This document shows positions 4,511 to 36,364 of a stretch of DNA of 64,000 nt, in pieces (position 1 is the first letter of the stretch; every line of letters begins with the position of its first letter). A program made the translations under genes and the position numbers. A model generated the notes under the pieces. It had not been told where the DNA came from and did not search any database. It saw only the letters and a list, made by a program, of their open reading frames with translations. The stretch is from an uncultured Gemmatimonadales bacterium (GTDB taxonomy: Bacteria; Gemmatimonadota; Gemmatimonadetes; Gemmatimonadales; GWC2-71-9). Location of the stretch: assembly GCA_963730185.1 (NCBI GenBank), contig CAVSQW010000014.1, forward strand, positions 96,001-160,000, read 5' to 3'.

Positions 4511-4526
4511 TGGCACCAACGTTGCT
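4511..4526 (+). promoter_or_regulatory. Sigma-54 -24/-12 promoter for the pilin genes
   Basis: TGGCACCAACGTTGCT matches TGGCAC-N5-TTGCW exactly, about 80 nt upstream of the pilin ATG. Confidence 0.8.
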
Positions 4527-27152: not shown

Positions 27153-28652
27153 ATGGCCGACATCGTCCTCACCCTCGCCGACCTGGAGACGGCGGTTCCC
27201 CTCAACGCGGCCCTCGAGGCCGCCGGCTATGCCACCGCGCTGGTCTCCGCGGTCGACGACGCCCGGGCCACGGTGCGGCGGGAGCAGCCCGATCTGGTCA
27301 TCCTGAGCGGGGCCGTCTACGAGCCGCCTACTCTCGACCTGGTCGCCTACGCGCGGGACCTGGAGGCCTACACCCTCGCCCTGATCGAGCCGACCGACTC
27401 CGAGCGGGGCGAGCGGATCGCCCGGCTCGGCGCGACCGAGATTCTCACCAAGCCGGTTTCGGTGGAGGACACGGTTGCCACGGCGCGCCGGTTGGTGGAG
27501 AGCCGACGGCTCCAGCAGCGGATCGGGATCATCGGGCAGAGCGGGGCCATCCACGAGGTATTGGTCAAGATCGAGCAGATGGCGCCGGTCTCGACTACGG
27601 TGCTGATCCAGGGAGAGTCGGGCACCGGCAAGGAGTTGGTCGCCAAGGGGCTGCACGACCTCTCCCCCCGGCGGGGCAAGCCGTTCGTCCCGGTCAGCTG
27701 CGCCGCACTCACGGAGACATTGCTCGAGTCGGAGCTCTTCGGACACGAGAAGGGGGCTTTCACGGGCGCGGCCGAGCGACGGCTGGGACGGTTCGAGCTG
27801 GCGGACAAGGGCACCATCTTTCTCGACGAGATCGGCGAGATCCCGGCCAGCACCCAGGTCAAGCTGCTCCGGGTGCTCGAAGCCCGGAACTTCTTCCGGG
27901 TGGGGGGCACCCAATCGATCAAGGTCGACGTCCGAGTCATCGCGGCGACCAACAAGTCGCTCAAGGAGTCGGTGGCGCTGGGGGAGTTTCGCGAGGACCT
28001 CTACTACCGGCTGAGCGTCCTGAACGTCTATCTGCCTCCGCTGCGCGAGCGCCGGGAGGACATCCCGCTCCTGGTCAAGCGGTTCATCAGGGAGTTTTCC
28101 AAGGCTCACGATCGGCAGTTCCGGGGCATCGCCACCGAGGCGATGCATCGTCTGATCGAGGCCCCCTGGCCGGGCAACGTTCGCCAGCTCCGGAATCTGA
28201 TCGAGTCGATGGTGGTGCTGGCTCCGGGCACGGAGATCCGGGCGTCCGATATCCCCGGCGATGTGTTGGAGGGGGCCCACACGTTGCTGCCCGTCCTCGC
28301 CAGTCAGGCGCCTCGGGCGCCGGGTACCCAGGAGCTGGAGTTCATCCTCCGCAACCTCATGGATTTGCGCTTGCAGGTCGAAGAGTTGCGCCGACGGCTC
28401 GATGAGCGGCCTTCCAAGGTCCAAGTCATCGAGATTCCGGAGGCGTCGTTCACACCTTTGCACGAGGTCGTGCCAGACGTTGCACCGCCGGAGGTGCTCT
28501 ATCGGTCTGGCATGACTATGGCTGACGTTGAAAAGGCGACAATCGAGGCCGCGCTGAAGGAGTCAAAGGGGAACCGACGTCAGGCGGCTGCAAAGCTCGG
28601 AATCGGCGAACGAACGCTCTATCGGAAGATCAAGGAATTCGCCCTCGGGTGA
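27153..28652 (+). CDS. Sigma-54 enhancer-binding protein with atypical receiver domain
   Basis: GESGTGKE, LESELFGHEKGAFTGA, FLDEIGE, FREDLYYRL, WPGNVRQL and a Fis HTH. Receiver beta-3 reads PDLVILS, so the phospho-Asp is absent. Confidence 0.92.
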   Translation: MADIVLTLADLETAVPLNAALEAAGYATALVSAVDDARATVRREQPDLVILSGAVYEPPTLDLVAYARDLEAYTLALIEPTDSERGERIARLGATEILTKPVSVEDTVATARRLVESRRLQQRIGIIGQSGAIHEVLVKIEQMAPVSTTVLIQGESGTGKELVAKGLHDLSPRRGKPFVPVSCAALTETLLESELFGHEKGAFTGAAERRLGRFELADKGTIFLDEIGEIPASTQVKLLRVLEARNFFRVGGTQSIKVDVRVIAATNKSLKESVALGEFREDLYYRLSVLNVYLPPLRERREDIPLLVKRFIREFSKAHDRQFRGIATEAMHRLIEAPWPGNVRQLRNLIESMVVLAPGTEIRASDIPGDVLEGAHTLLPVLASQAPRAPGTQELEFILRNLMDLRLQVEELRRRLDERPSKVQVIEIPEASFTPLHEVVPDVAPPEVLYRSGMTMADVEKATIEAALKESKGNRRQAAAKLGIGERTLYRKIKEFALG

Positions 28653-28756
28653 AAGCGGAGGTGTAAAAGTTTGAGGCACTTGGCCGCCTTGACTTTGCAA
28701 ATCGCCGCGGCGAACGTTTCGAAGTTCGGTCACGACTCTTATCTGAGGCCGGGGAC

Positions 28757-30442
28757 GTGAACTTCGTCATCGACGGCGAGGCGTGCGTAGCATGCCTGGC
28801 ATGCGCCCGGGTCTGTCCGACGAACGCCATTGCGGTGGCGCCGGACGCGACCTGGGTCCGGGTCCTCGACGAGGCCTGCATTCGATGCGGGCTTTGCGTC
28901 CCGGAGTGCCCGCACGACGCCATTCAGGTGGCCGGCGAGGTGGGGAACGCGGTGGCGATCGCGGCCGAGGGCCTGGGGGCGTTGATCTTGGGCACGGAGT
29001 GCGCGGCGCACTTCTATCCGGCCACTCCGGAGCAGGTGGTGAACGCCTGCTATGCGTCGGGGTTCCGGGTGGTTTCGCGGGGGGTGATTGGGGACGAGCT
29101 GGTGGCGGCGGAGTATCTCCGGCTCTGGCGGACGGAGACCTGGGGCACCATGCTTCGTTCCAGCGACCCGGTGGTGGTGGAGACGATCCGGAGGGAGTAT
29201 CCGGAGCTGATCCCGTACCTGGCCCCGGTGGCGACCCCGGCAGTTGCGGAAGCGCGCTATCTGCGCTCCATTCATCAGGGCGACCTCAAGATCGTGTATG
29301 CCGGGGTGACCCCACCGGTTGGCAGCGAAGACATCAACGCGAGCATCACCTTCGCGGAGCTGGAGGAGCTCTTCCGGGTCCGGGGGGTGAACCTGCATGC
29401 CCAGCCACTGGTGTTCGCGCGGGTGCCGCAGGAGCGCCGGCGCCACTTGAGCGTGGCGGGCGGGCTGCCGATCGAGCTGCTGGAGGAGGCCAAGCACTCG
29501 AGCCGCCGGTTCCAGAAGGTGCGGGGGCTCAAGGCGCTGAAAGCGATCTCCCGGGCGGTAACGGTCGACCGGATCGACCTGGGCTTCGTGGACGTGATGT
29601 CGTTCGAGGGCGCGCTGGACCATCCGCTCTCGGGTCCGCGGGAGGAGCTCTACTGGCGGCGGGCGGTGGTGCAGAGCACCGAGCCGCCCCGGAGCCGGGT
29701 CCCGGTGGTGGAGCCCGGGGTGGTGGCCAGCATCGGGGCGGTGTTCGACATCCGGCCCCGGCGGGCGGTGGCCGACCCGGAGTCGGTGGAGCAGGTGTTG
29801 AGCGCCATCGGGCTGGGCCCGAACGGGCGCCCCTGGGATTGCCGGGCCTGCGGGTACGCCAGCTGTCGGGACTTTGCCGAGGCGGCGGCCTTGGGGCGGG
29901 CCTCGCTCCGGCAGTGCGGGCCCTACCAGGAGCGGCAGGCCGACGAGGCCCAGCGGGCCGCGGCGACCGACCTCTTGACCGGGCTGGCCACCTTTCGGGT
30001 GCTCCGGGAGCGGCTCCGGCACGAGGTGGAGCGGAGCAAGCGGAGCGGAGATCGGTTCACGGTCCTGTTCATGGACCTGGACCGGCTCAAGGAGATCAAC
30101 GACCAGTACGGGCACGAGTCGGGCAACGACGTGCTTCGGGCGGTCGCGCAGGAGGTGCGGGCGGCGGTGCGGGCCTCGGATCTGGCGGCGCGGTACGGCG
30201 GCGACGAGTTCGTGGTGATCCTGACCCGGACCGATCAGGTGGGTGCCGAGCGGGTGGCGGAGGCGGTGCGTCACGGGGTGGAGGCGGTGGGCCGCCGGTT
30301 GGGCTATCCCGAGGGAATCGTGACGGTGAGCGTGGGGATCGCCGAGTACGATCCCGACCGCCCGTCGAGCGGAGACTTGCTGGTGAACGCGGATCGCGCT
30401 CTGTACAAGGCCAAGGCCTCGGGGCGTAACACGGTGGTCTAG
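28757..30442 (+). CDS. Diguanylate cyclase with 2x[4Fe-4S], [FeFe]-hydrogenase-like and FeS domains
   Basis: Ferredoxin motifs CVACLACARVCP and CIRCGLCVPECP, hydrogenase-fold stretches YPELIPYLAPV and ITFAEL, DCRACGYASC...C, then DLLTGL, DLDRLKEINDQYGH and RASD...RYGGDEF. Confidence 0.85.
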   Translation: MNFVIDGEACVACLACARVCPTNAIAVAPDATWVRVLDEACIRCGLCVPECPHDAIQVAGEVGNAVAIAAEGLGALILGTECAAHFYPATPEQVVNACYASGFRVVSRGVIGDELVAAEYLRLWRTETWGTMLRSSDPVVVETIRREYPELIPYLAPVATPAVAEARYLRSIHQGDLKIVYAGVTPPVGSEDINASITFAELEELFRVRGVNLHAQPLVFARVPQERRRHLSVAGGLPIELLEEAKHSSRRFQKVRGLKALKAISRAVTVDRIDLGFVDVMSFEGALDHPLSGPREELYWRRAVVQSTEPPRSRVPVVEPGVVASIGAVFDIRPRRAVADPESVEQVLSAIGLGPNGRPWDCRACGYASCRDFAEAAALGRASLRQCGPYQERQADEAQRAAATDLLTGLATFRVLRERLRHEVERSKRSGDRFTVLFMDLDRLKEINDQYGHESGNDVLRAVAQEVRAAVRASDLAARYGGDEFVVILTRTDQVGAERVAEAVRHGVEAVGRRLGYPEGIVTVSVGIAEYDPDRPSSGDLLVNADRALYKAKASGRNTVV

Positions 30443-30467
30443 CGGGTAAGCGAGGGGAGTTGTCACA

Positions 30468-31214
30468 GTGACGGGACCCAATCCGAGGCCACACGAGCCG
30501 GCCGCCCGGCCAAGCGGGCCGGCGGCCGCCCAGGAGACGATGCCGGATCCGTGGGGCGTGCGGCGGGCGGAGAACCTGCTGACCACCCTCGAGGGGATCC
30601 TGTCGGCCCGGGTGGTGACCACTCCCCTGGGGGAGGTCAGCGAGATCCACGTGCTGGCCCAGTCGGGGCTCTCGGCCAAGCAGCTGGTGCGGAACATCGA
30701 GTCGGCCCTGCTGGCGCATCTGGGTCTCAAGGTGGACCATCGGAAGATCAGCATCGCCCAGACGGCCGAGGTCAAGCCGCTGGAGACGCTGGAGCACGTG
30801 GCGGTGCGCGAGCGGGCGATGCAACGGGCGGTCCTGTTCGAGGACCTGGCGGTACACCAGTCCGGCCGGGCGCAGCGGATCACGATCGCGGTGACCCTGT
30901 CGTTCGGTGGGCGGCAGGAGACGGTGGAGCAGGACGTCGCCGACACCCCGCGGGGCCGGGTGGAAGGCGCCGCCCGGGCCACGGTAGGCGCGCTGGAGCG
31001 GTTCGTGGAGCGGAACGCGCTGGCGCTGGAGAGCGTCCAGATCGTCGACGCGATCGACCGGAGTGTGGTGTTCGTGGCGGTGCAGGGGATCGGGGGCCGG
31101 GACGCGGTGCTGTTGACGGGCACGGCGGAGATCCGGCAGAACCCCGAGCGGGCGGCGGTATTTGCGGTGCTGGACGCGACCAATCGCTGGGCGGATGCGC
31201 GGCGACCCGCCTGA
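30468..31214 (+). CDS. Conserved hypothetical protein (alternative start 30540)
   Basis: Typical codon usage. EIHVLA...KQLVRNIESAL...DHRKISIAQ is a family I recall near GGDEF/HD-GYP genes (unverified). Confidence 0.65.
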   Translation: MTGPNPRPHEPAARPSGPAAAQETMPDPWGVRRAENLLTTLEGILSARVVTTPLGEVSEIHVLAQSGLSAKQLVRNIESALLAHLGLKVDHRKISIAQTAEVKPLETLEHVAVRERAMQRAVLFEDLAVHQSGRAQRITIAVTLSFGGRQETVEQDVADTPRGRVEGAARATVGALERFVERNALALESVQIVDAIDRSVVFVAVQGIGGRDAVLLTGTAEIRQNPERAAVFAVLDATNRWADARRPA

Positions 31215-31217
31215 GCG

Positions 31218-31277
31218 GTAGGGACTTGGGAGTCGGGAGTAGTGACTCGGGAGTGAGTGGTGAGTAGGCAGTAGGGG
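31218..31277. repeat. Degenerate heptamer tandem repeats, same family as 17838-17946
   Basis: gtagggacttgggagtcgggagtagtgactcgggagtgagtggtgagtaggcagtagggg. Confidence 0.55.
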
Positions 31278-31305
31278 CAGCTTCACGAACGGAACAGAAA
31301 GGAAC

Positions 31306-31548
31306 GGTAGGGAGGGAACCCCGGTCTTCGCGGCAGGAGAGCGGAGCAGAGCGGACAACTGAGCGGAGCGTTTGATGGGCCATAGCGGGGCCCGTCCTTC
31401 TTGGTCGACTAACCAGAAGGACCCGAAGGGGGGTGACGCTCATGATCAGCTGGCTCGCAGCTATCGCCGTCGGCGCTGTGCAGTTCGTGGCTGGACTGTT
31501 CTTTGCTGAGACGATGTCTTGGTGATGATCTAGGGTTCCCTCCCTACC
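31306..31548. repeat. Perfect 16-bp inverted repeat enclosing a small ORF
   Basis: ggtagggagggaaccc (31306-31321) and gggttccctccctacc (31533-31548) are exact reverse complements. Confidence 0.85.
31442..31525 (+). CDS. 27-aa hydrophobic peptide MISWLAAIAVGAVQFVAGLFFAETMSW (not in the ORF track)
   Basis: Strong RBS aaggggggtga 5 nt before the ATG and tandem TGATGA stops. Single TM-like helix with a terminal Trp, directly upstream of the HD-GYP gene. Confidence 0.7.
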   Translation: MISWLAAIAVGAVQFVAGLFFAETMSW

Positions 31549-31557
31549 AAGTCTTCA

Positions 31558-33039
31558 ATGGATCGAACTCGATCGCGCGTCAATGCTTTCGTTGTCGGCG
31601 TTGGGAGCCTCGCTCTTGCGTCGATGTTGCTGGCGTGGCGAGTTCGACCGCCCTTCCCGGGCTTTTGGGCGCTGTCAGTCTTCGTTGCAGTTGGCGCCTT
31701 GTTGGAACTGACTAGCACCCAGCAAAAGGCAACAGGCGCCACAGGCAACATCTCCTTCGTCATCGACCTTTCGGCACCTTTGATCTTTGGCGGCTTCTGG
31801 GCTGCACTGATTACAGCGCTACGCGTTCTCGTCAGCAACCTCCTTGGCCGTAAGGCGCCGATTCGGGTCGCGTTCAATCTTGCCCAGACTACGCTTGCGG
31901 TCGTCGTCGCGTCGACCGTCTACCATATACTGGTGCCGCAGATCCCGCCGCGGCTACTGGTCGACTATGCGAGCCTTCCGTTTGATGAGGTATTGCGGCA
32001 ACTAGGGGCGTTCCTAGTCGCGGCGGCTCTATATTTTTCTGTCAACGCCATTGCAGTTACCACGGTCGTGAGCCTGAGCGCCGGCCGAACCGTCAGAGGC
32101 TCGATTGGCCTTAAGGCCTTCAGCTTCCTCGGCTACGACTTGCTGGCGAGTCTCCTCGCCATGGTGGTCGCGTGGGTCTTTGTCAGTTTCGACGAGGAGA
32201 ACGGACTCGCACGCCTTGCCCTGCTTGCCGTATTCGTGCCGGTAATCTTGGCGCGCCACATGTACGGAAAGCTCAATACCCTCCAGATCCTCTACGACGA
32301 GCTTGATCACGCCCACGAAGGCCTAGAATTGGCGTTACGTGAGCAACTCGAGATGATGGTTAAATCGATCGAGGCTCGCGATCCTTACACGTCAGGGCAT
32401 TCGCGACGTGTGGCGGCCCTGTCGAAGGCTATCGCAACGGATCTGGGTTTCACGGGTGAGGTGCTTGGTGAGGTTGAGAATGCGGCCCTCCTCCATGACG
32501 TTGGTAAGATCCACGCTGAATTCGCTCCACTCCTACAGAAGGAAGGGCGTTTGACGCAGGAGGAGTGGGAAATCATGAAGACCCACGCAGCCAAGAGTGC
32601 CGAGCTTGTCGGACTCTTTAGCCGCTTTCGTGGGACGGTTCAATCGGCCGTGCGATCACATCACGAGAGATGGGACGGTAAGGGCTACCCTGACGGGCTT
32701 GATGGCGACGAGATCCCACTCGGCGCTCGGATCATCATGATTTCGGACACCATTGACGCGATGACAACCGACAGGCCCTATCGGAAGGCCCTACCCTTCG
32801 AACGAGTCGTAAGTGAGTTGCAGAAGTACCGCGGGGCCCAGTTCGATCCGCGCTTGGTGGACGTGACAATCAACTCTGTCACAGTTCGCCGGCTGGTTTC
32901 AGACAAGGAGTTTCTGGCCGAGCAGACCCGGTCAGATCGCCCGATCACGAAGGTGCGGACTCGACCGGCCCTGCGATCGCAATCCAACTTCCTTGACGCA
33001 ATCCGGCCGGGTGTGTCTGGTGCAGGACGGGCAGGCTAG
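31558..33039 (+). CDS. Multi-TM (MASE9-like) HD-GYP cyclic dinucleotide phosphodiesterase
   Basis: About 7-8 N-terminal TM segments (AFNLAQ), then EARDPYTSGHSRRV, LLHDVGK, HHERWDGKGYPDGL and DAMTTDRPYRKA. Confidence 0.9.
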   Translation: MDRTRSRVNAFVVGVGSLALASMLLAWRVRPPFPGFWALSVFVAVGALLELTSTQQKATGATGNISFVIDLSAPLIFGGFWAALITALRVLVSNLLGRKAPIRVAFNLAQTTLAVVVASTVYHILVPQIPPRLLVDYASLPFDEVLRQLGAFLVAAALYFSVNAIAVTTVVSLSAGRTVRGSIGLKAFSFLGYDLLASLLAMVVAWVFVSFDEENGLARLALLAVFVPVILARHMYGKLNTLQILYDELDHAHEGLELALREQLEMMVKSIEARDPYTSGHSRRVAALSKAIATDLGFTGEVLGEVENAALLHDVGKIHAEFAPLLQKEGRLTQEEWEIMKTHAAKSAELVGLFSRFRGTVQSAVRSHHERWDGKGYPDGLDGDEIPLGARIIMISDTIDAMTTDRPYRKALPFERVVSELQKYRGAQFDPRLVDVTINSVTVRRLVSDKEFLAEQTRSDRPITKVRTRPALRSQSNFLDAIRPGVSGAGRAG

Positions 33040-33049
33040 GCGCGCTTCC

Positions 33050-36000
33050 TCAGATCACCTCGAGGCGGTGCAGGTGCTTGGCGGTTTCGACGCTCAACGC
33101 TGACACCCACTTTGTTAGCTCCTGAGATGCCGCCTGAGGGGCAAGTCCGAACGCGGATTGACTGAGGCGGACTAAGGCCGAGGCGACGTCAACGCGGTCG
33201 ACAGCGTCAAGTGGGCCTAGACACTTCTGCCAGTGAGCCACGCGAGCTATCGCTTCCGTCGCCTGGCCGTTGAGAATCGCCAATCTGGCCACCCACCGCG
33301 CATACTTCCCCACGACGCCGGTCGCGAGCGGATCGCCGAACCTGCCTGTGGTTGCAACTGTGCCGCTCTCGATTGCTAGCTTACGCTTCCCCATTGCCCA
33401 CAAGATGTCTGCCTGTGAGAGCAGCCAGTCCTGCTCGATTACTGGTATACCAGCGTGGCGGGCCACGTCACTGCCTAGGTCGAGACCTTCTCCGACACCG
33501 GCGGACTGCCCCAGTAGGGCGTTGGCCAGGGTGCCGTGCGCAATTGCATGGATGAGGTAGCTCGGTGCCCGAATCGCATTTAGTCGTGGAATTGCCTTCT
33601 CGGCTGCCTTGGCCGCTTCGCGGTAGTGACACAAGTTAAGGAGAGTTAGCGCGAGGGAAGCGCTGAGTTCACCGACCAAGGCTTCGTTATCCAACCTGTC
33701 CGCGAACCGCAGGCCCTCCGCGAGGATTGGGAGCGTGGCGGCGTACTCGCCCTTCACGACATGGATCGCTGCCTTGCCTGCCAGGACGCGGACAAACGCG
33801 GAATCGGCCCGCTCATTCTCCCTGCAGGCTACCTCGGCAAGCGATGCTAGGCGCTCGGCCTCGTCGAAATTCCGCAGATTGTAGAGCAGGATCGCGCGGC
33901 TGATCGTCAACAGAAGTGACTGATCGATATGGCCAGGCTGCAGTGCGCTATGGGCATCGAGCACCTGTCTGATCAGTGGTTGCTCTTGGGTTCCAACGGC
34001 CATACGTGCGGCGAGCATATAGGCTGGCCCGACGGCCTCGCCGTCGATGGTGCTGACGCGAAGCAGTGTCGCGACTGTGTTGCTCGTTGAATCACGGGGG
34101 ATTGCACCGAGTTGCCATTCGGCGTGCAGCCGAAACACCATAGCCAGTTGCTCAAGCGTCGCCGGCAACTCCCCGGCCTCCTCCAGCACTTGGAGAGACT
34201 CCCCCCAGCGTCCCAACTCCTGGTGCAGGTCCGCCAGCACGACGCGGGCGCGGGTCTGCGACGCGGGGTCGATCTCGCCGAGGGCCGATTCCAGCGCGAG
34301 GACCGCCTCGTCCGGCGCGCCACGGTCCTTGGCCTCGGACGCCCCCCGGAAGAGGCGAGGGGTCGCTTCCACCCGGCGGCCGGCCCGCATCAGGTGCCAG
34401 GCGATCTCGAGCCCCGGGACTGCTCGTCCGCCCTCCTCGTCCGCCAGGAGGCGGTCGGCGATCGCTGCGTGCAGCGCGGTCCGTACCGGGCCCGCGATCT
34501 GGCGGTACACGTGCGCCCGAACCAGCTCGTTGATGAATTCGAGGGTGGCGCCGACGCTTCGGAGGATGCGCTTGGTGGTCAGCTCCGAGATGCCCTCCAC
34601 GGTCTGTCCGAAGCTGAGGTCGACCAGGCCGAACATCGAGAGGTCGCTGGCCCGACTGCCAAGCAAGGCCGAAAGGGTGAGGACCTGACGGGCGCTGTGC
34701 GACAGCGTGACCAGGATCCGCTCGGCGATCATGGCGTAGGTGTCGCGGTCGCGGGTGCGGTCCGGTCCGAATTCCGCCGTCATCGCCCCGAAGGCGAGCG
34801 CCAGCGATTTGGCACCGTTGATTCGCCAGTCCTGGGTCAAGAGCTCGAGGGCCATCGGAAACCCGCGGGATGCCCGGACCAGGGCCCGCCGCTCCGGCAC
34901 TCGGGGCGTGGCGTCGGCTCCCTCCAGAATGACCTCGAGCAGCTCGGCCGTGTCGTCCTCGGGCATCGGCTCGAGGCCGAGCGGCTCCATCGAGAGCCGG
35001 TCCATGCCCTCGCGGATCCGCCGGGCCTGGTGCGATTCGTCCTCGTCGGCGGGGCGGGCGGTGAGGACCACCATGTAGCGTCCCCGGTCGAGCCGGCGGA
35101 GGACGAGGTGGAGGACCGCGAGGCTGGCCTCGTCGGCCACGGGATAGTCGTCGAGGACCAGGAGCAGCGGCCGCTCGTCCATCACGGCGATCAGGAGGTC
35201 CATCACCCCTTCCGCGAAGAAGAGGCGCGCGGTCTCGCCCTCGCTGGGGCGCGGGGGCGGCAGGTTGGGGTAGTGATCCTTGACCCCGGGCACGACCTGC
35301 GCGATCTCGGCGAGCGCCGACGGGGCGGTCGCCGCCACGCCGGGACGGCCCAGGAGCCCGCTGACCAGCGCCCCAATGGTGGCGTACGGCAGGCGCTGCT
35401 CCAGGTGATAGCACTGGACTCGGGAGACCGACGCCCCTTCGAGACCGGCGGCCGTCACCAGGCGCTGGGCCAGGGTGGTCTTGCCGACCCCGCTGTCGCC
35501 CACGATGCAACGGTGACGAGGCCGGAACTGGTGGGTGGTTTCCCAGGTCTCGTAGAGGGCCCGATACTCACGCCGCCGGCCCACGAACTTCCGGTCCCGC
35601 CACTGCTCGGCCGGCACCGCCGGCATCGCCACCGGCTCGCGGGGCTCCCAGCCTCGCTTCTTGAGCTGGCCGGCCATCCCTTCGAGCAGCCCCGACGGCT
35701 CGGCCCCGAGCTCGGCCGCGAGCAGAGCCTTCCACTCGTCGAAGACCCGAAGCGCCGAGAAGCGGTCGCCGGCCAGCGCCAGTGCCTCGATCTTGGCTCG
35801 GATGCCCTCTTCCGCCAGGTGATCGAGGGCGAGCAGGCGCTCGGCCCGGGTCATGATCTCGTCGTGCGAGCCCCGTCGCCTGGCGTGGTCGATCAGGGTC
35901 AGGAGCGCCGCGTGGATCGACGGTAGCCGCCGGGCGTGCTCCCGTTCCTTCCAGAGCGAGAACTCGGGCGCATCCGGCAGGTCGAATCCGCGGAGAAAGC

Positions 36001-36364
36001 CGTCGACCTCGAGCGGGTCCTCGCCGTCGGCTCCGAGGACCTCGCCGGCTTCGAGGCGATCGAGGTCCAACGCCAGCGCGGGCGGGTCGAACCGCACCAT
36101 CGGCCGGCTGGATGGAAAGGCGGTTCGGCCGAAAATCGAGCGGAGGAGGGAGAGGGCGTTGGCCAGCGAGTGCCGGCCCTGAGCCTGGGCCGCCCGGGGC
36201 CAGAACATCTCCGCCAGCCGGTCCCGATCGTGGCCCCGCTTCCGCTCCACCGAGAGGAACACCAGCAGGGCGAGATGCTTCCGGACCCGGAACCGGACGA
36301 CCTTCCCGTCCGGCGCGCGAAGCTCGGCGGGGCCCAGACACTTGAGCAGGTAGGGAGCGGGCAC
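33050..36364 (-). CDS. SARP-like wHTH/BTAD-STAND ATPase with C-terminal TPR-like region
   Basis: RKHLALLVFL...RLAEMFWP, BTAD (LLALDHLAEE), FVGRRRE, Walker A GDSGVGKT, Walker B LLVLDD, RGFPMAL and a helical repeat tail. Confidence 0.85.
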   Translation of the reverse strand: MPAPYLLKCLGPAELRAPDGKVVRFRVRKHLALLVFLSVERKRGHDRDRLAEMFWPRAAQAQGRHSLANALSLLRSIFGRTAFPSSRPMVRFDPPALALDLDRLEAGEVLGADGEDPLEVDGFLRGFDLPDAPEFSLWKEREHARRLPSIHAALLTLIDHARRRGSHDEIMTRAERLLALDHLAEEGIRAKIEALALAGDRFSALRVFDEWKALLAAELGAEPSGLLEGMAGQLKKRGWEPREPVAMPAVPAEQWRDRKFVGRRREYRALYETWETTHQFRPRHRCIVGDSGVGKTTLAQRLVTAAGLEGASVSRVQCYHLEQRLPYATIGALVSGLLGRPGVAATAPSALAEIAQVVPGVKDHYPNLPPPRPSEGETARLFFAEGVMDLLIAVMDERPLLLVLDDYPVADEASLAVLHLVLRRLDRGRYMVVLTARPADEDESHQARRIREGMDRLSMEPLGLEPMPEDDTAELLEVILEGADATPRVPERRALVRASRGFPMALELLTQDWRINGAKSLALAFGAMTAEFGPDRTRDRDTYAMIAERILVTLSHSARQVLTLSALLGSRASDLSMFGLVDLSFGQTVEGISELTTKRILRSVGATLEFINELVRAHVYRQIAGPVRTALHAAIADRLLADEEGGRAVPGLEIAWHLMRAGRRVEATPRLFRGASEAKDRGAPDEAVLALESALGEIDPASQTRARVVLADLHQELGRWGESLQVLEEAGELPATLEQLAMVFRLHAEWQLGAIPRDSTSNTVATLLRVSTIDGEAVGPAYMLAARMAVGTQEQPLIRQVLDAHSALQPGHIDQSLLLTISRAILLYNLRNFDEAERLASLAEVACRENERADSAFVRVLAGKAAIHVVKGEYAATLPILAEGLRFADRLDNEALVGELSASLALTLLNLCHYREAAKAAEKAIPRLNAIRAPSYLIHAIAHGTLANALLGQSAGVGEGLDLGSDVARHAGIPVIEQDWLLSQADILWAMGKRKLAIESGTVATTGRFGDPLATGVVGKYARWVARLAILNGQATEAIARVAHWQKCLGPLDAVDRVDVASALVRLSQSAFGLAPQAASQELTKWVSALSVETAKHLHRLEVI

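Follow-up and report, generated by a model that had tools for sequence, protein, structure and literature searches.

Organization of the Locus

Within a window of 64,000 nt from an uncultured Gemmatimonadales bacterium (contig CAVSQW010000014.1; the window is the whole stretch of DNA analyzed), a small peptide gene lies directly upstream of a membrane-bound HD-GYP protein. The peptide open reading frame (ORF; 31442-31525, plus strand) encodes 27 amino acids ending in FFAETMSW, is preceded by GGGGGTGA and is closed by TGA TGA. A spacer of 32 nt separates it from the ATG (31558) of the MASE9-HD-GYP ORF (31558-33039, plus strand), which in turn ends 10 nt from a convergent BTAD-STAND ORF of 1104 amino acids (33050-36364, minus strand). 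The initial annotation, made from the letters of the window alone, had described the unannotated ORF, its ribosome-binding site, the double stop, the spacer and the gap, and all of these are as it described them. It missed a folded RNA leader (31333-31444), a block of low GC content and gene 30468, which has no Pfam family. The module is real, conserved and unannotated. Its core unit across the Gemmatimonadota consists of gene 30468, the leader, the peptide and the MASE9-HD-GYP protein, with gene 30468 being a more constant partner than STAND; MASE9 and the leader are each single-copy in the genome from which the window derives (82% complete). What is new here, judging from the comparison of homologous loci, is that the peptide has two parts: a head that tracks the flanking gene and a Trp-bearing tail that tracks MASE9.

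Gene 30468, whose family the initial annotation had put forward for a check of co-occurrence, is present in 131 of 151 family genomes. Homologous loci were drawn from 40 relatives, from 60 regions taken from part of these genomes, from 82 metagenome pattern matches (mostly unrelated), from the best 80 of 580 genome loci and from a phylum sample, in which MASE9 is matched in 39 of 61 genomes. Removal of duplicates and of loci with an incomplete or frameshifted HD-GYP gene left 119 loci; L047, whose peptide has no Trp near its end, was excluded from most counts, which gives 118 peptides. The first 68 loci were partly chosen for Trp, while the 51 later ones were not filtered for it. Three unpublished genomes (G051, G169 and G211) are counted only in the 151-genome and 61-genome tallies. 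Since the Shine-Dalgarno (SD) or leader motif served to find loci, the SD count given below is partly so by construction.

Head and Tail of the Peptide

The conserved small ORF upstream of HD-GYP homologs that the initial annotation anticipated is found at the matching position in the 118 analyzed loci, with an SD-like motif ahead of it in 118/118. Its Trp-terminated character has likewise held up, as a Trp occurs in the last four residues of 114 of the 118 peptides (47/51 in the set not filtered for Trp), which end at this residue or one to two residues beyond it. The peptides measure 16-35 amino acids.

The head (31442..31510, plus strand; codons 1-23) is an amphipathic helix ending in Ala-Glu and has a length of 12-27 residues among the homologs. 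Amphipathicity is above that of shuffled sequences in 107/116 heads (z > 1.64 in 65), and 81/118 carry a charged residue in the middle of the helix. Among 29 peptides of equal length the ratio of non-synonymous to synonymous polymorphism (pN/pS) of the head is 0.45, and across 24 loci the head follows the flank (partial r 0.48) versus -0.01 for MASE9. The tail (TMSW plus stop; 31511..31525, plus strand) is allele-specific, travels with MASE9 and is the predicted ligand. Its segment covers three to five residues, with 97 distinct tails among the 118 peptides. Among 93 tail codons compared, 48 are the same, 21 differ synonymously and 24 non-synonymously; identical tails are retained with synonymous changes where the synonymous sites of MASE9 are saturated. 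The three peptides that were looked up (those of the window, L032 and L037) are absent from a collection of 15 billion proteins. In one lineage (L056, L071, L072, L229, L236, L245, L247, L251 and L268) the ribosome site is shortened to AGGAGACGCTC and the heads are longer, whereas the tail pattern is retained.

Covariation of the Tail With MASE9

Tail and head were compared with MASE9, the flank and the TPR region of STAND by partial Mantel tests on sets of 24, 59 and 43 loci, the last being gathered afterwards. Given the flank, the tail correlates with MASE9 in each set (r 0.34, p 0.004 for 24 loci; 0.19 for 59; r 0.49, p 0.003 for the 43 later loci). In 38 disjoint flank-matched pairs, the tail difference falls with MASE9 identity (rho -0.57, p 2e-4) and is uncorrelated with the identity of the flank or the HD domain. 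For 69 of 108 loci the nearest MASE9 is not that of the nearest flank; the closer tail belongs to the MASE9 neighbor in 39 of these and to the flank neighbor in three. In addition, among 24 pairs matched for leader and head (at least 90% identity over the leader and first 12 codons; these pairs overlap one another), the tail differs in 17/17 with a MASE9 identity of at most 72% and is shared in 7/7 with at least 76%.

Close pairs locate the boundary. Their DNA is 96-100% identical across the leader and nearly so across the head, and then drops to 41-55%, with the edge of divergence at the Ala-Glu codons, ahead of the tail and not at the start of MASE9. L037 and L039, for example, are 97% identical in gene 30468, 91-94% in the N-terminal domains of STAND and only 39% in MASE9, and they carry different tails. 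The tails of L036 and L037 are identical, with 83% identity in the flank and 67% in MASE9. MASE9 clades agree with tail types regardless of the head. In an approximately unbiased (AU) test the MASE9 tree rejects two clades of the flank tree (p 6e-34 and 6e-62), these clades having been named after the identity tables had been seen. The tree of the HD catalytic domain holds L037/L039/L040 together, likewise L159/L070, and retains one of the two flank clades that MASE9 rejects; the mobile unit can thus be the tail and MASE9 alone. On this comparative evidence, tail and MASE9 change and move as one block whose edge follows the Ala-Glu codons. Among the genome-bin contigs, 53 stop less than 1 kb past gene 30468, and 27 of these stop within the peptide ORF (28 were flagged, one of which concerns a different gene). 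We regard the evidence from these sequence comparisons for a lock-and-key relation between peptide and MASE9 as strong.

The peptide tail, the HD-GYP gene and the STAND TPR region lie together in a fast-diverging block of low GC content (about 31400-34200), with a GC fraction of 0.57-0.63 versus about 0.70 around it and a right edge within STAND near residue 720. GC at third codon positions (GC3) is below that of the flank for MASE9 in 38/38, HD in 36/38 and TPR in 37/38 loci. Recent import from a low-GC donor is therefore rejected, low GC3 being a standing feature in 36-38 of 38 loci.

The MASE9 Sensor and the HD-GYP Enzyme

The MASE9 membrane sensor (31558..32262, plus strand) matches PF20972 with 30.6 bits against a cut-off of 24.3. 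It is followed by the HD-GYP catalytic domain with a variable C-terminal extension (32341..33039, plus strand; HD_5, E 9e-34). The HD, HHE, GYP and RPYR residues are retained in 117-119 of 119 homologs, and the domain is predicted to be an active phosphodiesterase of cyclic di-GMP (c-di-GMP). The C-terminal extension (window 32950-33010) keeps the motif RPALRSQSxF/W within the genus, with related motifs elsewhere. It was considered as a partner of the STAND TPR region and discarded, as no covariation is seen (r -0.03, 74 loci).

The MASE9 model has a predicted local distance difference test score (pLDDT) of 92.5, and its residues 32-214 match the S-components from transporters of the energy-coupling factor (ECF) type, with one extra helix at each end. 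In the VIA comparison the S-component 4huq_S gives Z 13.4 with a root-mean-square deviation (rmsd) of 3.0 over 158 amino acids; the top 15 rows are all S-components (Z 8.4-13.4) and the next row has Z 7.4. Foldseek gives E 0.011 with a probability of 1.0 for the likeness to S-components, of which there are also weak hints in the sequence. The extra helix 216-264 comes after the core and ahead of the cytoplasmic HD-GYP domain. The N-terminus and loops 52-66, 95-103 and 174-190 (L1, L3 and L5) are net positive (+0.7 to +2.7 across 118 homologs), these loops being of fixed length, whereas the remaining MASE9 loops are neutral or acidic and vary in length. Together, the added helix and the positive segments suggest that the core is inverted relative to S-components, so that the modeled pocket appears to face the cytoplasm. 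Odd-numbered loops line the S-component pocket. At matched divergence, the strongest association with tail identity is seen for columns such as 187, 56, 200 and 186 (marginal), the top ones (187, 56 and 186) lying in L5 and L1.

The RNA Leader and Gene 30468

Upstream of the peptide, the structured RNA leader (31333..31444, plus strand) contains AGCG(G) in three copies, a hairpin whose loop reads UAGCG, and stems enclosing the peptide SD. It is present at homologous loci, and 10 of its 18 pairs have compensatory changes, a number reached in 0/500 shuffles and not in slid controls, which score lower. No Rfam family corresponds to it, the sole match to an Rfam model being a CRISPR repeat at chance level (E 4.6). 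The AGCG repeats, including the copy in the hairpin loop, look like RNA sites. A function as DNA sites for STAND is not favored, as one copy forms the hairpin loop and the leader persists without STAND. An SD precedes the HD-GYP start in 21/118 loci (none in 97/118), compared to 48/70 for gene 30468. Since most HD-GYP starts have no SD of their own, translational coupling from peptide to HD-GYP is likely, and this does not conflict with the peptide being a ligand. The spacer was also considered as a pairing partner of the peptide SD, with no signal (65/107 stronger than shuffles).

Gene 30468 (30468..31214, plus strand; 248 amino acids) is the constant upstream partner. It has no Pfam or NCBIfam match (none among 60 members better than E 0.01), although homologs number 2,796 cluster representatives at E <= 0.001. 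Searching PDB, Pfam, NCBIfam and Atlas by sequence assigned it to no family, and a relationship emerged only from its fold. In the model (pLDDT 84) the C-terminal domain (120-243) has the allosteric amino-acid-binding fold of LeuA and citramalate synthase (Foldseek to LeuA, E 6e-7; VIA to 3f6g, Z 9.9, rmsd 3.0 over 109 amino acids), and the N-terminal domain (25-100) is predicted to be a small generic alpha/beta fold. This protein is a candidate for regulating the leader; sensing of an amino acid and binding to the AGCG repeats are speculative functions.

The BTAD-STAND Regulator

The N-terminal part of STAND (34208..36364, minus strand) contains BTAD and a P-loop ATPase that retains Walker A and B, and the C-terminal TPR region (33050..34207, minus strand) is low in GC and very divergent. 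Pfam finds BTAD over the cut-off, AAA_16 and a weak TPR, the latter being upheld by alignment (TPR_12 in 22/27 members), which confirms the BTAD, ATPase and TPR composition read earlier from the sequence. Residues 1-100 are conserved, and Pfam names no winged-helix or DNA-binding domain there. The search of PDB sequences gave no match. STAND is predicted, from its domains, to be a transcription regulator. A role as defense ATPase was rejected, PADLOC giving a best E of 0.004 to the P-loop only and no specific match.

The initial annotation treated STAND as a linked part of the system, which is true within the class (102 of the 106 loci with at least 600 nt available downstream) and not in another class (0/5), where only weak STAND paralogs occur elsewhere in three of the four genomes searched. 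Past STAND the genes are variable, falling into 34 groups in 64 loci, which makes the linkage of STAND a real one. In six of 38 loci the HD domain has a GC3 of at least 0.85, and in five of these it is flanked by a low-GC MASE9 and a low-GC TPR, implying that the TPR region varies on its own. From these comparisons STAND is linked to the module, probably as a regulator or output and not as the matched receptor of the tail.

Beyond the STAND start, a gene with repeat-like helical sequence occurs in 12/64 loci (e.g., L043). In the other class without STAND (L304, L305, L306, L308 and L309), a conserved same-strand gene of about 455 amino acids follows HD-GYP in 5/5 loci, and then an HflX-like gene. 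The N-terminus of the ~455-residue product resembles that of a B12-binding radical SAM enzyme, which would make it a candidate for peptide modification.

Comparison With Known Systems

By analogy, the module is genetically similar to agr and comX, yet it lacks other features by which those systems are recognized. In agr, a hypervariable region spans agrB-D-C, with an amphipathic leader and allelic groups (PMC10482373). The locus described here shares the succession of an amphipathic leader and a short variable segment, as well as a variable block that begins inside one gene and enters the membrane domain of the receptor. In contrast to agr, the peptide has neither a ring Cys/Ser nor a charged C-terminal tail, terminating at or just past its Trp; AgrB peptidase (PF04647) was not found in the locus or in the 82%-complete genome; and the host is diderm with a pocket predicted to face inward. 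ComX has a variable C-terminus with Trp, and its sensor a variable N-terminus (PMC4008528). The conserved Trp near a variable C-terminus and the adjoining variable multi-transmembrane sensor N-terminus recall the Bacillus ComQXP system, from which the module differs by its short precursor (16-35 versus 52-73 residues) and by having no prenyltransferase in the locus, where the upstream gene has the fold of the LeuA regulatory domain instead. Unlike in both systems, the receptor candidate is an HD-GYP protein, with no histidine kinase and response regulator.

In domain architecture and intact catalytic motifs the enzyme resembles other MASE9-HD-GYP proteins (TM1467, Streptomyces HdgA); hdgA mutants of Streptomyces are reported to have no developmental phenotype (PMC6205966). 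In S-components and 5TMR kinases such as BtsS, H0 begins on the outside, and H6 has its end in the cytoplasm (PMC11109136). Their core of six helices binds the ligand, is preceded by one more N-terminal helix and can act as a sensor, a layout that the MASE9 model shares; MASE does not occur in the main text of that paper. Different from those receptors, whose pocket loops lie outside, MASE9 has a positive N-terminus and a further helix after H6, and its modeled core appears inverted. Among the entries listed, our literature search gave nothing relevant on inverted S-component sensors.

In RRNPP systems a TPR sensor is encoded near a small peptide gene, and the peptide is exported, re-imported and bound by the TPR region; AfsR/LAL-type STAND regulators have a BTAD-ATPase-TPR layout, with an N-terminal winged helix of the OmpR type for binding direct repeats. 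The neighboring small peptide gene and the BTAD-ATPase-TPR layout are present here too, with the difference that the TPR region does not track the peptide tail and that STAND is dispensable for the core module. In the MgrB-PhoQ and SafA systems a self-made small protein modulates a membrane sensor of the same cell, as we propose for this peptide, whose helix by contrast is amphipathic and of variable length and whose specificity would reside in a swappable tail.

Interpretation and Alternative Explanations

The sequence evidence makes it probable that the peptide has a ligand role for MASE9, be it from inside or outside the cell. More specifically, our best explanation is that the Trp tail is an allele-specific ligand of the adjacent MASE9 and acts from the cytoplasmic face on the predicted c-di-GMP phosphodiesterase, a reading we hold tentatively, at somewhat less than an even chance. 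The tail would bind the S-component pocket and set the phosphodiesterase activity, and the amphipathic head would lie on the inner leaflet and present the tail, with or without cleavage at the junction of the small residue and Glu. The leader would gate the amount of peptide and, most HD-GYP starts being without SD, that of the enzyme too, and the upstream LeuA-fold protein may supply the input. STAND would have joined later, at the level of the class, bringing a variable TPR region of its own, probably as regulator or output. A still wider reading, which we consider doubtful, is that of a swappable self/non-self peptide code wired to c-di-GMP across a whole diderm soil phylum, with dozens of alleles that each pair a Trp tail with an inverted S-component pocket, a change of lifestyle on sensing the own or kin peptide, and trade of alleles between species by recombination starting inside the peptide gene. 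Phage peptides are reported to act on a diguanylate cyclase (PMC8085984) and are one possible driver of allele diversity.

Peptide control of a c-di-GMP phosphodiesterase by way of an allele-matched membrane pocket would be a new route into second-messenger signaling. As a sensor domain MASE9 is an orphan, and the Trp tail is likely its missing key. Attention thereby shifts from STAND to MASE9 as the partner of the peptide, and the natural allele series supplies exact cognate and non-cognate pairs of four to six residues. With the predicted inverted S-component fold, one more class of receptors would be added to those that use this fold. The paper defining MASE9 leaves the ligand unidentified and suggests intramembrane binding, and its main text mentions no peptide (10.1101/2021.11.05.467447). 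A literature search, thin on subscription journals, found no peptide-controlled c-di-GMP phosphodiesterase with an allele-matched membrane pocket.

Several observations weigh against the tail as cytoplasmic ligand of MASE9. Trp is replaced by Phe or Ile in 4/118 peptides, and the peptides of L210 and L244, outside the set of 118, end without Trp. The membrane topology is read from a model, and the enrichment of tail-associated columns in inner over outer loops is marginal (p 0.055) with non-independent pairs. As S-component folds bind small metabolites, MASE9 may have another ligand. Tail and MASE9 are only about 30 nt apart, so that linkage alone yields covariation, and tight linkage could account for part of that observed. 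Within a MASE9 class, the conservation of tail positions does not exceed that of matched MASE9 columns, and the match is not one-to-one: a tail core is common to L062/L074, whose MASE9 identity is 53%, and to L318/L084, where it is 36%. Synonymous divergence (dS) is saturated across the whole block, which fits recent swapping as well as old balanced alleles, and dN/dS by domain is uninformative for the same reason.

The absence of an own SD at most HD-GYP starts and the folding of the leader over the peptide SD would also suit a purely cis-acting leader peptide, whose translation opens or couples the HD-GYP start while the tail is carried along by a MASE9 whose diversification has another cause, be it a metabolite, a partner or a phage protein. 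Conservation of leader and head DNA above that of the flanking gene, and the unremarkable class conservation of the tail, fit such a peptide as well. We nevertheless consider this unlikely, given the protein-level constraint on the head (its pN/pS and amphipathic pattern) and on the tail, the near-constant terminal Trp, the unexceptional pairing of spacer and SD, and an edge that in every close pair with a different sensor precedes the tail instead of coinciding with the MASE9 start. The diversity of tails, the junction of a small residue with Glu/Gly, heads that are often too short or charged to span the membrane and a genetic signature equal to that of agr and comX could also be read as pherotype signaling, in which the tail is cleaved and exported. 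It would then meet MASE9 from outside, across the membrane or following re-import, and an effect on each other's c-di-GMP would be limited to kin of the same allele. The contigs ending inside the peptide ORF are expected here if several alleles share a habitat, yet a leader almost identical in co-occurring species would explain them too. The locus ORFs include no protease, transferase or exporter, no AgrB is found in the genome as recovered, and the pocket loops are predicted to be cytoplasmic, which makes this rather unlikely; secreted quorum sensing in general is possible and, for the same lack of a processing or export gene in the locus and the inward pocket, not favored.

The initial annotation had offered the peptide as ligand of the HD-GYP sensor and/or the STAND TPR region. 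The first half of this proposal has gained from the conservation of the ORF, the allele covariation of tail and MASE9 and the ligand-pocket fold of the membrane domain, while the second half is not supported. That the TPR region is the receptor or a second receptor, activating transcription in the manner of RRNPP proteins, seems highly improbable to us, even though the convergent linkage persists while the genes beyond vary, the region is variable and low in GC, and its profile matches Rap phosphatases at E about 2e-9 (ranked below generic TPRs). Given the flank, the tail correlates with TPR in the 43 later loci (r 0.31, p 0.003), and the TPR tree keeps two groups by tail type (L038 with L039/L040; L035 with L036). 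The same tree splits three other same-tail groups, and once MASE9 is taken into account the correlation vanishes in four sets (-0.08, -0.12, 0.02 and -0.09, none significant), whereas that of tail and MASE9 given TPR stays at 0.32-0.51. Nineteen disjoint pairs give rho -0.27 (p 0.26) for TPR versus -0.73 for MASE9. Identical tails occur with TPR regions only 30-35% alike and different tails with regions 50-57% alike, and 44/45 genus pairs are 21-37% identical in TPR, tail shared or not. Finally, peptide and sensor persist without an adjacent STAND in 5/5 loci of the other class, and the TPR region was rejected as tail receptor on these grounds.

Further Observations on the Gene Neighborhood

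No sigma-70 promoters were found, and terminator-like matches are at chance level. A search with the sigma-54 consensus gave no site in 28600-31600; a perfect match lies at window 4511-4525, far from the locus. An extra conserved element upstream of the AGCG repeats (window 31296-31330; GAAAGGAA ... GGGAGGGGACCCCGGTCTTCG in relatives) could represent a promoter or additional RNA structure. Most family loci have, upstream of gene 30468, a ferredoxin, FeFe-hydrogenase-like and GGDEF cyclase gene (window 28757-30442), which is preceded by a sigma-54 activator (27153-28652), so that a cyclase and a phosphodiesterase share one cluster.

Variants of the layout are seen as well. Genome G084 has two MASE9-HD-GYP genes, one with peptide and without STAND and the other with STAND (L096 and L317), and L101 encodes a MASE9 protein of 747 amino acids without STAND. 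In a subclade comprising L084, L091, L094, L095, L096, L099 and their kin, an insertion of about 600 nt, apparently a receiver-domain-like gene, separates gene 30468 from the leader, and Ile or Phe takes the place of the final Trp in some of the peptides.

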